From positions 34,590-98,589 of IMG/VR virus record IMGVR_UViG_3300003322_000423: DNA of 64,000 bases. The stretch is one strand, 5' to 3'. Shown here piece after piece: positions 19,864 to 26,816 of this stretch (its first letter is position 1; every line of letters starts with the position of its first letter). Source of the DNA: a virus. The translations under genes and the position numbers were made by a program. The notes below the pieces were generated by a model, which was given only the letters and a program-made list of their open reading frames with translations, was not told the DNA's origin and searched no databases.

Positions 19864-19937
19864 TGGTGGCGCCGCCCCGAGTCGCACGGGGGTCAAAGGG
19901 TTATGAGCCCTTTATGGAACTCCTCCACTACAGCGCA
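19864..19937 (-). tRNA. initiator tRNA-fMet (CAT)
   Basis: 1:72 mismatch, three G-C pairs in the anticodon stem, encoded CCA. Confidence 0.85.
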
Positions 19938-19938
19938 G

Positions 19939-20012
19939 TAGTTCTGACGGGATTCGAACCCGTGATCTTCTCCTTATGAGGGAGCTGCCCTAAACCACTA
20001 GGCCACAGAACT
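19939..20012 (-). tRNA. tRNA-Met or Ile2 (CAT)
   Basis: Cloverleaf, loop CTCATAA. Confidence 0.85.
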
Positions 20013-20083
20013 ATAGAAAGGAACAATGTCAGGTACAGCCGTGTCTCCTGATGTGGCCTGGCCCAGCTACTCATTGTTCCTTG

Positions 20084-20158
20084 TTCCACCGACGGGATTT
20101 GAACCCGTGACCAACACATTATCAGTGTGTCACTCTTACCAGACTGAGTTACGGTGGA
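20084..20158 (-). tRNA. tRNA-Ile (GAT)
   Basis: Cloverleaf, loop CTGATAA. Confidence 0.9.
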
Positions 20159-20236
20159 GATGTGACGGTTTTCCTGAGGCCCTACTTAAAGGATGCTGCG
20201 CTCTTGCCCCTCAGAGGTCGAACCGTCAAACCTCGC

Positions 20237-20310
20237 GCGACCTAGACGGGGATCGAACCCGCGACTTCCACCTTGACAGGGTGGTGCTCTAACCACTGAA
20301 CTACTAGGCC
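20237..20310 (-). tRNA. tRNA-Asp (GTC)
   Basis: Cloverleaf, loop CTGTCAA. Confidence 0.92.
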
Positions 20311-20494
20311 AAAACCCTGCCCACAAGGAACAGGATGGGTTATAAATTATACACATATTTCGTAAGGTTCAAGAGACTTTCCCACCTGGTACAGAGGTGT
20401 TCTCCATTGCTACTTACGATCCTTTATTACCCGTCTCTTTTCAGGGAGCGATTCCGTGTACCCGGCAGACGGAGCGTGATGTGTTTACGCCGCG

Positions 20495-20571
20495 TGGAGC
20501 TAGACCGAATTGCACGGTCCTCCGGAAGCCTCCGCATGCGGCCCTACTTCCGTCGAAACTAAATTAGCCCC
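20495..20571 (-). ncRNA. mini-tmRNA: tRNA-like domain only
   Basis: GGGGCTA/TAGCTCC-A with G3.U70, stemless D-loop ending TTCGAC, P2a CGGAAG/CTTCCG, T-arm GACCG-TGCAATT-CGGTC; no mRNA-like domain. Confidence 0.75.
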
Positions 20572-20617
20572 TTGCCCGGTTTTTGTGTATACCTGAACCG
20601 TGGTGACAAAACAGGTA

Positions 20618-20691
20618 GTGGAGATGACAGGACTCGAACCCGCCGCCTTCTGCGTGCAAAGCAGACGCTCTTCCCGATGAGCTACATCCCC
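20618..20691 (-). tRNA. tRNA-Ala (TGC)
   Basis: Cloverleaf, G3.U70, loop TTTGCAC. Confidence 0.92.
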
Positions 20692-20747
20692 AAACCAGGT
20701 TTTTGATAACGCAGAACCCCGTCTCCCGAAAACTGCGTGTCTAAGTG

Positions 20748-21863
20748 TTATTCGTTGCAATTACAGTCTAATTGTAGCGGAGGTTCCCAGATTTGTCCAT
20801 CCCCTGGAACCTGCGATTTAGGCTGATAGTCCAGCGGACTGAACAACAGATTTGCATTCGTCTCGTTACGTGTACCAAGCCATAGATCTACACCTTGATA
20901 TGGTACACCGTCGACCACGCTGACTGTTCTGGGCTGTCCGCCACATGAGGCCCCGTTGAAGATGCGACGCCCGTATACCGGCGCACCCCAACCGACGTTC
21001 CCGGGAGCTGTCCAGCCGCTGTAGAGACTGGAACTAGTGGCATATCCGATCGGGGTACCTGCACAGTAGCCGCATCCCTGATCAGAATATGTTATCACAT
21101 ATTCCTGTGATCTTTCATCCCAGAAACCGCCGGGACCTTCCGTATGACTCAGACTTGCCACATTCGTGACACCTAGAGCCGTCCCCCCGCTACCCCAGTA
21201 ATTCAATTGCTGGATATTCATTCCAGTATTGCCGGGAAGAGTGCAGATGATAGCTGGTGGTCCGGAGCGAGCCTGGATTATACCGAAGTCCCCGTTGCCC
21301 GTACAGATACTCAGATTAGGTTTGTTGTATGAGCCCCAGGGCTTTCCTGCATTAGGCCCACAAGGTCCGGCAGGCCCGTTGCATCCCATAACGTTATACC
21401 CGCTCTGGGCGCCGTCAGACTTGTGCCTAGGGGCGTTGAACCAGAGTATGAACGCGCCGTCGTTGTGGCCCCAGCCTGTACGCTGGATCATCCGAGGATT
21501 GAAACATCCCTGGCCGGTACCACCACACGTGGTCTGCCACGAAACCTTCTTGTACGGGTCCTGTTCGTTAGGGTTGAACAACAGCTTAGGTTCAGACCAT
21601 GGACCCTCTATGCTCTGGGAGGTGCTCACACCGAAGCCACAGAAAGGTGTGTTTTTGATACTCCACTGGAAACCACATTTGTACATGGTTCCGTACAGGT
21701 AATAGGTGTTCCCGAACTTGGCTAAATGTCCATCGTGAAGATCTACACCCTGAATGTTCAGAGGTCTAGGATCAGACTGAGTCTCGGCGTTTACAGGTCC
21801 GGAAAATAAAAATACAGTTGCCGTTACGACAACTGCGACAAGTAATCTATATAGCCGTTTCAC
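20748..21863 (-). CDS. secreted glycoside hydrolase, GH43-like beta-propeller
   Basis: Signal peptide; DLHDG....FG.TYYLYGT, FNPR, EGP. Confidence 0.6.
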   Translation of the reverse strand: MKRLYRLLVAVVVTATVFLFSGPVNAETQSDPRPLNIQGVDLHDGHLAKFGNTYYLYGTMYKCGFQWSIKNTPFCGFGVSTSQSIEGPWSEPKLLFNPNEQDPYKKVSWQTTCGGTGQGCFNPRMIQRTGWGHNDGAFILWFNAPRHKSDGAQSGYNVMGCNGPAGPCGPNAGKPWGSYNKPNLSICTGNGDFGIIQARSGPPAIICTLPGNTGMNIQQLNYWGSGGTALGVTNVASLSHTEGPGGFWDERSQEYVITYSDQGCGYCAGTPIGYATSSSLYSGWTAPGNVGWGAPVYGRRIFNGASCGGQPRTVSVVDGVPYQGVDLWLGTRNETNANLLFSPLDYQPKSQVPGDGQIWEPPLQLDCNCNE

Positions 21864-21884
21864 TGCCCTCTCCTAATAGATAAG

Positions 21885-21958
21885 TAGGCCCGTCGGGATT
21901 TGAACCCGCATCACCTGTATATAAGACAGGCGCTCTTACCTGATTGAGCTACAGGCCC
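21885..21958 (-). tRNA. tRNA-Ile (TAT)
   Basis: Cloverleaf, CCTGT-CTTATAT-ACAGG. Confidence 0.88.
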
Positions 21959-22133
21959 ATTGACACTAACCAAGTCTAGGTGTCTGTCCGTGTCATCTGT
22001 CTCCGACTACCGGCTTGTCACTTGGAAATTCTCTCTGATCCGGATGACACTTCGTCCAGAGAACGGGCCTGTGTCGTGGCCCCAGTGCTTGCAGTATCTT
22101 ACTGACAGATGGTGTTCAGACTTACAAGCAAAG

Positions 22134-24968: not shown

Positions 24969-25034
24969 TTGGAGCCTGCACGTTGCCCTCAATGGCAGGC
25001 TCTATTCAGTTGTATTGACCCATCCTAAGGTCAG

Positions 25035-25109
25035 TACCGGTGACGGGGCTCGAACCCGCGTTCTTCTGACTGAGAATCAGATGAGCTTTGCCAACAGCTC
25101 CACACCGGC
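25035..25109 (-). tRNA. tRNA-Glu (CTC)
   Basis: Cloverleaf, loop TTCTCAG. Confidence 0.87.
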
Positions 25110-25210
25110 AAGCCCACAGCTTTTATTTCGGTACCTTCGGGCTGGAGTTCCCAGGTCTTACTTAGGCTGTGGCGGTATTCCAGAGTTACTTCGAATAGCC
25201 TCTAGAACCG

Positions 25211-25287
25211 TATCCGAGACCGGAATCGAACCGGCGTCTTCTCCTGATTGAAAGTCAGGGCACCCCTGCCAACAGAGTAACTCGGAC
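25211..25287 (-). tRNA. tRNA-Glu (TTC)
   Basis: Cloverleaf, loop CTTTCAA. Confidence 0.85.
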
Positions 25288-25378
25288 TTGGACCGGTTTT
25301 TGTTTCTAACCAGAGCACTCCGGGGGCTACCCGGCACTATACTGGCCCTAATTCAGAACCCGTCCCCGAAACTGAACG

Positions 25379-25454
25379 TACCTGTGAAAGGACTCGAACC
25401 TTCAAACCTTCTGATCCTAAGTCAGACGCCTCTACCAAATTGGGCTACACAGGC
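25379..25454 (-). tRNA. tRNA-Leu (TAG), short variable region
   Basis: Cloverleaf, loop CTTAGGA. Confidence 0.88.
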
Positions 25455-25538
25455 TTAAAACCCTGGGCTGGAAGCATCCAGCAGTATGGAAACTTATAGT
25501 GGTTGACTTGTGAGGGAAAACGCACTACCCAGGGTCAG

Positions 25539-25612
25539 TACTCCGACTCGGACTTGAACCGAGGACACGCGGATTAAGAGTCCGCTGCTACTACCAACTG
25601 AGCTACCGGAGC
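25539..25612 (-). tRNA. tRNA-Lys (CTT)
   Basis: Cloverleaf, loop CTCTTAA. Confidence 0.9.
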
Positions 25613-25916
25613 GAGAAAAAACTATTCTAGCATACCCCGAAGGGTGGCGGGTGGGGTGATTTCCCACAACAGAGGGCAGGCCATTAGCCGATTTAATTAC
25701 CTCTGAACCACACGTTAGCCGCTAAGCACGAATTCAGGCGCATCGCTAAATGCCCTTCCGTCAACTTCCTCACCGATTGGCTCTGGATAAAGGGGTGGCC
25801 CTTTGGGGTGCCCGCCCAAGCTTACGTTTGTCTTCCGCCGTGTGTACAATCCATCCCCCGATCTGCATAGGGGATCGTTTCTGTCACCGCCCACACTTCC
25901 CGTCGGAAGTGTGTTG

Positions 25917-25996
25917 TACCCACAGAGGGATTCGAACCCTCACGCCATAAGGCATCGCTTTTGAGGCGACTGACTATACCGTTCGTCTATGCGGGC
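25917..25996 (-). tRNA. tRNA-Leu (CAA)
   Basis: Variable arm, loop CTCAAAA. Confidence 0.88.
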
Positions 25997-26170
25997 CTCA
26001 CCCTTGATTGCGCTACCACGCTCAAGGGCTTACCTCAGCTCTAGGTGAGGTCACAACAGCTCTCTAAACCCGGAGCCAGGGCGCCTCACGGTTTATGGTA
26101 GCTCCGTGAGAACTTCAAGCTTGTGTCACCCCTCTGCCGGGGGGAAAGGAAACTCGGCAGAGAGGGACGG

Positions 26171-26572
26171 CTAAAGGTCTTCCACCATTATATGGAAACC
26201 GTATGCATAGTAGAAAGGGTTCCCCGCTGACCAGCCAACATCAAGCTTGAGCACATCACCCATGTCGGCGTAAATGTGCCAAGTCTGGTATCCGTCAGTC
26301 GTACCCACGCCCGTGATAATGTGGTCAACCATTTCGGGGTGGAGCAGAAAACCTTCAAGTTCTGTATAGGCGCAACAGTCGCTCTCACCGACAAGGGTCA
26401 CTGCTTTACCGTTGTCCAGTATGATCCGGCCTTCGGGTGACACGCTGACGATTTTGTGGCCTACGACAGCTTCAGCAAGAGCATTCTTGCTGTCAACCAT
26501 TGTACCGTTGTCTGTTTCTTCGTCAAGGATTTCCTCTTTGTACAGACGTTTGTGCTTGTACTTTTTGGCCAT
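26171..26572 (-). CDS. hypothetical protein
   Basis: AAAGGAG upstream of ATG 26572; DCCAY motif. Confidence 0.7.
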   Translation of the reverse strand: MAKKYKHKRLYKEEILDEETDNGTMVDSKNALAEAVVGHKIVSVSPEGRIILDNGKAVTLVGESDCCAYTELEGFLLHPEMVDHIITGVGTTDGYQTWHIYADMGDVLKLDVGWSAGNPFYYAYGFHIMVEDL

Positions 26573-26591
26573 GATAACTCCTTTCAAAAAG

Positions 26592-26663
26592 TAGCTCCCC
26601 GGAGACTCGAACTCCGCACTCAGGCACTTCACGCCCGTGCTTTTCCTGATAAGCTAAAGAGCC
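26592..26663 (-). tRNA. tRNA-Phe (GAA)
   Basis: Cloverleaf, loop GTGAAGT. Confidence 0.85.
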
Positions 26664-26816
26664 ATTTGGATGTCGCGCAAGACTTTATGATAGTCCCACC
26701 ACATCCTCTGTCCCTGCCCGGAGGCAGGTGCAGCCGTTTCATGTACACGCTATTCACTAGTCAAAGTTCTCGGTTACAGCTTCTCCGGTTTCCCGTGTCC
26801 CGCTGTTGTGAGTACT

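Follow-up and report, generated by a model that had tools for sequence, protein, structure and literature searches.

The DNA between phage tRNA genes normally goes unannotated. Whether such gaps can encode RNAs of their own is the question raised by a 64,000-nt stretch of viral DNA (henceforth the window; positions 34,590 to 98,589 of the IMG/VR record IMGVR_UViG_3300003322_000423), in which 25 tRNA genes, every one on the minus strand, form a cluster at 19864-26663 (ARAGORN). Among the roles discussed for phage tRNA genes are codon supply and a countermeasure to tRNA-cleaving defences (PMC10264068, PMC11464382, PMC11555353). An earlier interpretation made from the letters alone (the sequence-only reading) had proposed that most spacers of the cluster fold as compact units, and that tRNA maturation would release a dozen or more discrete non-coding RNAs, an RNA toolkit beyond tRNA supply. 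Here, we find four spacers with homologues in other phages and with helices kept by compensatory changes, which bears out the toolkit idea in part but falls short of a dozen: four conserved non-tRNA RNAs and three tRNA-like relics were found. The proposal thus appears partly right, with the array containing four or more extra RNA genes of putative function.

The window belongs to a 98.6-kb IMG/VR virus contig, estimated to be 85% complete, with reads from a root metagenome. Of the cluster's tRNAs, Rfam recognizes 20 at its gathering threshold, and relaxing the filters adds three; the closest likeness of these tRNAs is to those of large Streptomyces phages (megablast and blastn). Once interrupting open reading frames (ORFs) are set aside, 18 non-coding spacers remain, ranging in length from 49 to 310 nt. 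Searches with the whole cluster (megablast and blastn) matched the tRNAs and one spacer element, termed E below, and nothing else. Protein-anchored searches of IMG/VR and metagenomes yielded neighbors of at most 60% identity and one 1.4-kb fragment at 75%, none with a tRNA array or spacer homology and none from a phage close enough for spacer alignment. A tRNA-junction pattern search gave no match, and a T-arm/acceptor pattern found only an unrelated tRNA. Three DNA runs, containing contigs from the same root-metagenome study, carry the identical sequence, at low depth, along with host tRNAs unrelated to it; they contain no informative variants in the spacers, and no RNA run is listed among the public runs matching this sequence. 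The decisive step was to search single spacers with a permissive E-value against 50,697 phage records.

Element A (Table 1) starts directly after tRNA-Ile and ends 5 nt before tRNA-Met. It consists of an 11-bp closing stem (P1), a hairpin (P2) with a loop ending in GCCA, and an arm (P3) that carries an invariant GAGACACGGCUGUAC. Blastn searches found its core in the Microbacterium phages Rasputia and Milani and in Streptomyces phage Geonosis, and an invariant 30-nt pattern located it in eight IMG/VR loci and one Kibdelosporangium genome; the motif now has 13 members, most often with a tRNA or an ORF a short way downstream. In an alignment of nine sequences (A4), 95.4% of cells are paired, compared with 69% when shuffled and ~35% when slid, and both sides have changed in 15 of 24 pairs. 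P1 (10-11 bp) is wholly different in sequence among members with its pairing always kept, and P2 and P3 covary too. Invariant positions number 30, including the P2 loop and the GAGACACGGCUGUAC segment, and the P2 and P3 loops could kiss by pairing AGCC with GGCU. A covariance model (R1) detects a single copy in the window, at 78.2 bits, and none in the arrays of six Streptomyces phages; no paper containing the core was found. Motif A lies just upstream of a tRNA in five independent contexts, three of which have a 5-nt linker (the window, L177/L182 and L183), and in L183, a 26-tRNA phage contig from IMG/VR, it takes up a whole inter-tRNA spacer, as it does in the window. Elsewhere it sits 45-70 nt upstream of ORFs. 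A shared downstream gene was considered and rejected, as the ORFs that follow the motif are mutually unrelated. In Rasputia (L174 ~2440-2500) and Milani (L175 ~1917-1990; both on the plus strand), an unannotated tRNA-like 3' end, consisting of a T-arm and then an acceptor strand ending in CCA, directly precedes A, and unrecognized tRNA-like genes may thus accompany the motif. An inter-tRNA gap of L183 (931-1028, plus strand) matches the bacterial small signal recognition particle (4.5S) RNA with 37.8 bits, the gathering score being 40.

Element E has homologues in 12 Streptomyces phage records, representing ~10 distinct phages, with 80-86% identity. In Targaryen, StarPlatinum, and Anedea, E fills an inter-tRNA gap exactly and is always 74 nt long, between tRNAs that vary from phage to phage (His/Phe, Tyr/Tyr, and Pro/Pro, respectively); in Naboo it fills a Glu/Lys spacer, and in Genie2 it abuts only the upstream tRNA-Tyr. 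An alignment of six sequences (A8) is 99.1% paired versus 37-49% when slid, and both sides have changed in seven of 19 pairs. The covariance model (R2) scores the window copy at 92.2 bits. E is not a tRNA, since it cannot form an acceptor stem.

The homologues of element D are 240-244 nt long; the window copy carries an insert of ~30-40 nt, and its 3' end contains an extended -10-like site (TGCTAGAAT). By blastn, D is present in Pumpernickel, a Microbacterium phage, and in eight Streptomyces phages of the FlowerPower/RosePharie type; each has a tightly packed tRNA array with a single 240-244-nt gap, filled by D. A conserved 20-mer led to nine further IMG/VR loci, seven of them in tRNA arrays with the same geometry and other flanking tRNAs. 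Overall, D lies within a tRNA array at 11 of 12 homologous loci and spans the entire gap between varying tRNAs at all nine loci where both flanks are covered. The RNAalifold structure (alignment A6) has 68 pairs, 37 of them changed on both sides, and is 93.9% paired versus ~43% when slid. The window copy retains 47 of the 59 alignable pairs, of which 11 have changed on both sides relative to FlowerPower, and maintains its long-range helix through three compensatory pair changes.

D is a divergent relative of manA, a riboswitch candidate described from 5' untranslated regions (UTRs) of marine bacteria and cyanophages (Weinberg et al. 2010, PMC2864571). The best actinophage copy, from RosePharie, matches the manA model RF01745 over its full length (positions 1-192) with 43.4 bits and an E-value of 3e-10, below the gathering score of 55.2 bits; FlowerPower, Pumpernickel, L189, and L195 yielded no match, as no candidate got through the initial filter. 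The architecture of manA, i.e., a 5' hairpin, a long-range helix enclosing the body, GUGAC.GAA, a 3' hairpin UGUGGG..CCCAC, and a CCUC.CAC tail, was found in D (alignments A5 and A6 and the RosePharie alignment): the 5' hairpin is present, the long-range helix reads GGCGG/CCGCC in place of GAGAG/CUCUC, a GUGACAGAA segment is conserved, and the 3' hairpin is followed by a CC..CAC tail. D differs in its larger central part (240-300 nt versus 192 model positions) and in its context, as the downstream gene is a tRNA and leaves no room for an expression platform. This placement favors a role as a free RNA. A bona fide manA RNA in a tRNA slot also occurs in cyanophage S-CREM1, where it scores 100.6 bits at 10215-10429 between tRNA-Leu (10132-10213) and tRNA-Asn (10429-10501); the genome paper lists wcaG, manA, and abiF as cis-regulatory and leaves their placement in the tRNA array unremarked (PMC9964418). 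The same array (tRNAs at 9057-9129, 9890-9961, 10132-10213, and 10429-10501) also contains the wcaG (9745-9842) and abiF (10531-10567) RNAs (PMC9964418 Table 4, Table S4). The manA copy of P-SSM2 is part of a 5' UTR, upstream of purL, and the family therefore occurs in both settings; S-PM2, considered as a further case of manA beside tRNAs, was rejected because it contains no manA. Five manA RNAs are reported, from cryo-electron microscopy, to form closed oligomers in vitro, with decamers and a 60-mer cage described, in a 2026 preprint that leaves tRNAs unmentioned (10.64898/2026.07.01.735769). Because its family forms such RNA-only closed oligomers, D probably acts as a free particle rather than as a gene switch. 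The occurrence of manA-type RNAs flush between tRNAs in actinophages and a cyanophage favors the same role and indicates where its biology should be sought.

The fourth conserved RNA corresponds to the tRNA-like domain of transfer-messenger RNA (tmRNA). Like phage tmRNAs, of which Naboo and Ankus carry 275-297-nt versions inside their tRNA arrays, it combines a GGGGCU acceptor containing G3.U70 (full stem GGGGCUA/UAGCUCC), a UUCGACG loop (UUUCGACG), and a T-arm. It differs in the link between its two halves, which is nothing more than a short GC hairpin, and in its T-loop, which reads UGCAAUU instead of UUCAAUU. The Rfam match to RF00023 covers only the two ends of the model, and ARAGORN found neither a tmRNA nor a tag peptide in the window. 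Although blastn against the phage collection gave no match, Rfam identified 81-nt short forms scoring above the gathering threshold in phages pSt2308 (61.0 bits) and GiJojo (57.4 bits). Aligning the three short forms (A1) reveals compensatory changes at positions 4 and 7 of the acceptor and throughout the five-pair T-stem, with GACCG/CGGUC in the window replacing CUGGG/CCCAG of pSt2308 and GiJojo; all three keep G3.U70. Genes for SmpB, an RNA ligase, or a CCA-adding enzyme were not found in the record, which is 85% complete.

Taken together, we consider it fairly probable that the spacers are a heterogeneous set, comprising four separate RNA genes, a tRNA-derived group, and a remainder of promoter-like, leader, hairpin, and no-signal sequences, with the RNAs being released by tRNA processing. 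A, E, D, and the tmRNA-like domain each occupy an inter-tRNA position on the minus strand, and their homologues in other phages are placed likewise. The alignments of A, E, and D contain many G.U pairs on the tRNA strand, which on the opposite strand would be A.C mismatches, and this suggests that the RNA is made from the tRNA strand. All four are most likely co-transcribed with the tRNAs; for E, D, and part of the members of A, this is suggested by their position flush against tRNAs of varying identity in related phages. Since E, D, and, in some members, A end 0-5 nt from the flanking tRNA genes, tRNA end-processing would release them: RNase P, in maturing the 5' terminus of the following tRNA, would free the 3' side of the spacer RNA, and maturation of the preceding tRNA's 3' terminus, by RNase Z or exonucleolytic trimming, would leave a free RNA with defined ends. 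We infer that such products would be stable and might act in trans.

Several observations weigh against this explanation. The families are small, with 6 to 13 sequences that are partly close relatives, and the structure of D was derived from the same alignment that was used for counting its pairs. The window copy of D, with its insert, is unmatched by the Rfam manA model (own genome, E <= 10; 8.5-kb scan). The window's tmRNA-like element stays below its gathering score, at 31.7 versus 47 bits, and the match is lost when the spacer is searched alone. Promoter-like sites in some spacers mean that the cluster may be transcribed as more than one precursor and that certain elements might not belong to a tRNA precursor at all. 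Finally, motif A and canonical manA also occur in the 5' UTRs of ORFs, which fits a role in cis equally well; A may act in cis on whatever is downstream, given its location 45-70 nt before unrelated ORFs.

This last point leads to the strongest competing explanation, in which the conserved structures in the spacers work solely in cis, on the precursor, by insulating tRNAs from misfolding, positioning cuts by RNase P, Z, or E, blocking exonucleases, or mediating antitermination, and are discarded after processing without any role as free RNAs. A generic 5' element would be expected to precede unrelated ORFs as well as tRNAs, as A and canonical manA do. Structured spacers are moreover general in the tRNA arrays of Streptomyces phages: 39 inter-tRNA spacers from six such phages have a mean folding z score of -1.97, with 36% below -2, homologous spacers among these arrays show compensatory changes, and, there as in the window, hairpins often begin 0-3 nt past a tRNA 3' end. 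A terminal stem without any shared sequence is also what links the window and phage Mandalore in the spacer that follows an 88-nt tRNA present in both; the Mandalore spacer, unrelated in sequence to its counterpart in the window (element C), has an 8-bp closing stem (z -2.7, p 0.027). We nevertheless judge a purely cis-acting role to be unlikely. A, E, and D each contain extended invariant stretches, single-stranded or in loops, that would be needless for insulation and point to a defined tertiary structure or a particular partner, and E and D remain constant in length and content while their tRNA neighbors change. In addition, manA RNAs self-assemble into defined oligomers, and the alanine identity elements of the tmRNA-like domain make sense only for a free, chargeable RNA.

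A more far-reaching proposal takes A and E to be new functional RNA classes that phages carry in their tRNA arrays. On this view, A, compact and probably pseudoknotted, could be a new self-cleaving ribozyme or a modifier of RNA polymerase or RNA processing, while E, tRNA-sized and in a tRNA slot, could be a non-decoding tRNA stand-in that diverts or occupies a tRNA-targeting defence or a tRNA-processing enzyme. The proposal, by which A and E would form a counter-defence or takeover kit together with the manA-type and tmRNA-like RNAs, seems quite doubtful to us. As A and E, neither of which has a match in Rfam, are present in cultured, genetically tractable actinophages, their functions are directly testable.

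A broader alternative, closest to the sequence-only reading, is that functional small RNAs occupy a dozen or more of the spacers, including elements B and C and the spacers 24969-25033, 25110-25209, and 25997-26170. Folding energies were computed for the minus (transcribed) strand and expressed as z scores relative to dinucleotide shuffles. Every stem that had been quoted for the seven example spacers is present at its position, and four of these spacers reach z <= -2, but 20162-20235, 20371-20439, and 23852-23956 do not. Across the whole set, z <= -2.3 was obtained for six of 18 spacers (20013-20082, 24585-24894, 24969-25033, 25455-25537, 25997-26170, and 26664-26841), with the other 12 ranging from +0.7 to -1.6, so that compact folding of most spacers was an overstatement and folding energy backs about one third of them. 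The mean z of -1.36 exceeds in strength that of 79 control 80-nt windows from elsewhere in the window (-0.66; Mann-Whitney one-sided p = 0.016), 14% of which have z < -2, and this excess is real yet modest. End-to-end closure by at least 4 bp occurs in ~20-28% of shuffles, and a stem closing near the flanking tRNAs is mostly a generic, default outcome of RNA folding. Among 11 short spacers, three have terminal stems beyond chance (20013-20082, 11 bp, 0/300 shuffles; 23839-23956, 10 bp, 0/300; 25455-25537, 8 bp, p 0.027), whereas the remaining short spacers do not exceed shuffles.

The strong-folding orphans among these spacers, B, C, 24969-25033, and 25997-26170, are candidate RNAs on the basis of their predicted folds. 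B, with an 8-bp closing stem that starts 1 nt after tRNA-Lys and ends 4 nt before tRNA-Leu, is the best-folding spacer of all (z -4.0 in the spacer set); the terminal stem of C is accompanied by an overall z of merely -0.5. Several orphans reach z -3.2 to -4.0, and the case for a larger set gains from the three improbable terminal stems, from the lack of close relatives of this phage, which limits the detection of conservation, and from E, a real RNA of unremarkable z that makes an absent signal elsewhere weak evidence. Compact folding indeed failed to predict which spacers are conserved: the E spacer covaries at z -0.8, and 20371-20439, an example singled out for its stem, does not surpass shuffles in folding and lacks relatives. 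Folding energy is therefore a poor discriminator in both directions, as it missed E and flagged spacers without detectable relatives, a point of method that applies to shuffle-based folding energy. We nonetheless hold a dozen or more functional RNAs to be improbable. B, C, 24969-25033, 24699-24894, 25997-26170, and 20311-20491 have no homologue among the 50,697 phage records, and the remaining spacers have no relatives in ~1.9 Mb of loci that include more than 20 tRNA arrays. Examination of related phages for covariation, proposed as a check by the sequence-only reading, was positive for A, E, D, and the tmRNA-like domain, while most other spacers lack relatives; Rfam, also proposed, produced the sub-threshold tmRNA match but left A, E, B, C, and the window copy of D uncovered even at relaxed thresholds. 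With a z below -2 already reached by 14% of control windows and four spacers consisting of tRNA relics or a missed tRNA, the number shrinks further, and we found no support for any particular function such as decoys, aptamers, or antitoxin mimics.

The tRNA-derived spacers would be products of duplication and decay within the array. One of them, at 22941-23023, is probably a missed, atypical tRNA: it has a 7/7 acceptor stem, a long variable arm (class II), and the anticodon loop CU-GUA-AA, and would be the cluster's sole Tyr acceptor. Its Rfam tRNA score is 20.2 bits (gathering 29), and its best library match, tRNA-Tyr of Alone3, is just ~2 standard deviations over shuffles. The cloverleaf at 24629-24698 has a 7-bp acceptor stem and a T-arm with a perfect 5-bp stem (CUGGG-UUCGAAU-CCCAG). 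Its anticodon loop, CC-CUG-AA, carries C33 instead of U33 next to a mismatched first stem pair (C/U) and is not that of a decoding-competent tRNA, suggesting either a pseudo-tRNA or a non-decoding tRNA look-alike. The sequence at 24715-24800 best matches the tRNA-Gln(CTG) of pSt2308/GiJojo with a score of 19 (shuffled best 10.6 +/- 2.1). The hairpin series proposed for 24700-24890 does fold better than shuffles but is thus partly a decayed tRNA-Gln. The stub at 22712-22778 resembles tRNAs at ~5 standard deviations above shuffles. Decay of tRNAs as the origin of all spacers was rejected: it holds for these four, and A, B, E, 24969-25033, and 25290-25377 are unlike 197 tRNAs beyond shuffles. Also discarded were ARAGORN calls at the 70% threshold for 25458-25536 (Val) and 25290-25377 (Trp), as this threshold yields many matches on the wrong strand and within ORFs.

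Other spacers carry putative signals. A leader repeat of the form ..ACGGGUUCUG.. then CAAAAACCNGG occurs three times, and its CAAAAACCNGG ends, at 20575-20585, 20695-20705, and 25292-25302 (minus strand), precede by 3-5 nt the tRNA-type 5' ends of the tmRNA-like domain, tRNA-Ala, and tRNA-Glu(UUC). Two copies have a common upstream GACGGG(G)UUCUG, and the copy at 25288-25377 contains an inserted ~45-nt hairpin. By itself the leader 11-mer is no rarity, occurring 10 times in the window versus 4.2 expected; it is the position of these copies that stands out. The promoter-like sites are consensus matches only, with a total count not above shuffles. That only the tRNAs are functional, the spacers being neutral tRNA debris and promoters and their conserved pieces DNA sites or hitch-hikers, would agree with the tRNA-derived sequence in four spacers, the promoter-like hexamers before several tRNAs, and the 12 of 18 spacers that fold no better than shuffles, but is very improbable and largely refuted by covariation, as compensatory substitutions keep 15, 7, and 37 pairs in A, E, and D across phage genera and hosts, the strand specificity of the G.U pairs speaks against a site in double-stranded DNA, neither A nor E nor D resembles tRNAs, and the entirely different P1 sequences of A exclude an artefact of recent common descent.

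Table 1. Spacer elements, tRNA-derived sequences, putative signals, and interrupting ORFs of the tRNA cluster (window coordinates; z relative to dinucleotide shuffles).
Feature	Position	Strand	Remarks
Element A	20013-20082	-	between tRNA-Ile(GAT) and tRNA-Met; conserved three-way junction
Element E	20159-20236	-	between tRNA-Asp and tRNA-Ile(GAT); 74-nt conserved RNA with four nested helices
Mini-tmRNA	20492-20571	-	tRNA-like domain of tmRNA, 80 nt, without tag frame or pseudoknots
Element D	25613-25915	-	between tRNA-Leu(CAA) and tRNA-Lys(CTT); divergent manA-type RNA
Element B	25455-25537	-	between tRNA-Lys and tRNA-Leu(UAG); four-way junction
Element C	23839-23956	-	after 88-nt tRNA-Asn; 10-bp terminal stem around two hairpins
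Two hairpins	24969-25033	-	tRNA-Arg(UCU) to tRNA-Glu(CUC); z -3.3; first hairpin starts right after the tRNA
tRNA-Tyr(GUA), probable	22941-23023	-	ARAGORN at 80% threshold; missed at default
tRNA-Gln(CUG)-like cloverleaf	24629-24698	-	Rfam RF00005 29.0 bits, equal to gathering score; ARAGORN relaxed
Decayed tRNA-Gln(CUG) copy	24715-24800	-	acceptor and T stems broken (alignment A2)
tRNA-Met-like stub	22712-22778	-	CAU-loop anticodon arm, perfect T-arm, 3' acceptor strand; 5' half lost
Leader repeat	25288-25377, ~20572-20617, ~20692-20740	-	three copies, ~45 nt
Promoter-like site	24595-24623	-	TAGACA, 17 nt, TATCAT with TG; before tRNA-Trp
Extended -10-like site	~20340-20350		before tRNA-Asp
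Extended -10-like site	~25625-25635		before tRNA-Lys
Extended -10-like site	26687-26714		before tRNA-Phe
Example spacer	20018-20082		z -2.4
Example spacer	20162-20235		z -0.7
Example spacer	20371-20439		z +0.4
Example spacer	23852-23956		z -0.95
Example spacer	25460-25535		z -3.6
Example spacer	24700-24890		z -2.1
Example spacer	25110-25208		z -2.0
Interrupting ORF (one of four)	20748-21863	-	371 aa; signal peptide, secreted; weak GH43 match (Pfam); mid-array
Interrupting ORF (one of four)	22222-22614		130 aa; helix-turn-helix domains (Pfam)
Interrupting ORF (one of four)	24050-24475		141 aa; Cys/His-rich; no family in Pfam search
Interrupting ORF (one of four)	26171-26572		DUF7448 protein (Pfam)

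The closest precedent for non-tRNA small RNAs among phage tRNA genes is provided by RNAs C and D (species 1 and 2) of phage T4, which are regarded as products of tRNA-precursor processing. The array described here differs in containing at least four distinct families and in belonging to an actinophage-like genome. To our knowledge, its elements have no sequence or structural relation to the T4 RNAs, with which no direct sequence comparison was made. RNAs C and D are encoded in the same region as the T4 tRNAs, and their function is still obscure after decades (PMC3014915, PMC9697503). Likewise of obscure role are GOLLD and ROOL, structured RNAs that often occur near tRNAs and in prophages and are possibly co-transcribed with the tRNAs (PMC5737381). 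These resemble the present elements in being recurrent beside tRNAs in phages and prophages, but at 580-800 nt they are longer, and their sequences are unrelated; the elements found here measure 65-300 nt and sit within the array itself, directly against the tRNAs. Inter-tRNA gaps can thus hold several independent conserved RNA genes, which would share the processing route of the tRNAs.

A third comparison concerns YrlA, a Y RNA that mimics tRNA and partners with Ro/Rsr proteins. Ro-like genes lie inside the tRNA arrays of pSt2308, GiJojo, and Alone3, but no element of the window resembles YrlA, and neither a TROVE/Ro gene nor YrlA was matched in the 85%-complete record. In the three phages, the tRNA-Ala/tRNA-Lys spacer just downstream of the TROVE gene (L166 11794-11862, L172 14104-14168, and L173 13090-13159, all on the minus strand) forms a hairpin pair with z -3.1 to -4.7, compensatory changes, and a conserved ACGCAC..CUGGCGAG core. 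This spacer is a candidate Y-type partner RNA; it does not match YrlA at threshold. The Lys(CUU)/Lys(UUU) spacers of Mandalore (L165 8880-9000) and Naboo (L171 9038-9155; minus strand) contain a T-arm-like GGGGUUCGAUUCCC inside a longer stem, together with two hairpins, and their stems are kept via compensatory changes. They appear to represent another non-tRNA, tRNA-mimicking element.

Among the ORFs that interrupt the array, the one at 22222-22614 looks like a homing endonuclease, and the sole IMG/VR relatives of the 371-aa protein have 47-56% identity, none of them close to tRNAs. Directly upstream of the cluster (26842-27211, minus strand), a cytidine/dCMP deaminase is split over two overlapping frames, with the HAE half at 26960-27211 and the PCxxC half at 26842-27045; the split could be due to a frameshift, either programmed or an assembly error.

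Two tRNAs of the cluster are unusual in themselves. The anticodon position A34 is rare outside tRNA-Arg, and the tRNA at 23482-23554 (minus strand; 56.8 bits) has the anticodon ACA (Cys) in addition to a normal tRNA-Cys(GCA) at 22637-22711. The 88-nt tRNA-Asn(GUU) at 23957-24044 (minus strand), with an oversized D/anticodon region, has no match to the Rfam tRNA model and is recognized only as tRNA-Sec, at 20.6 bits; a 91% identical copy is present in Mandalore (L165 11428-11515, minus strand), which also encodes a normal 73-nt tRNA-Asn.

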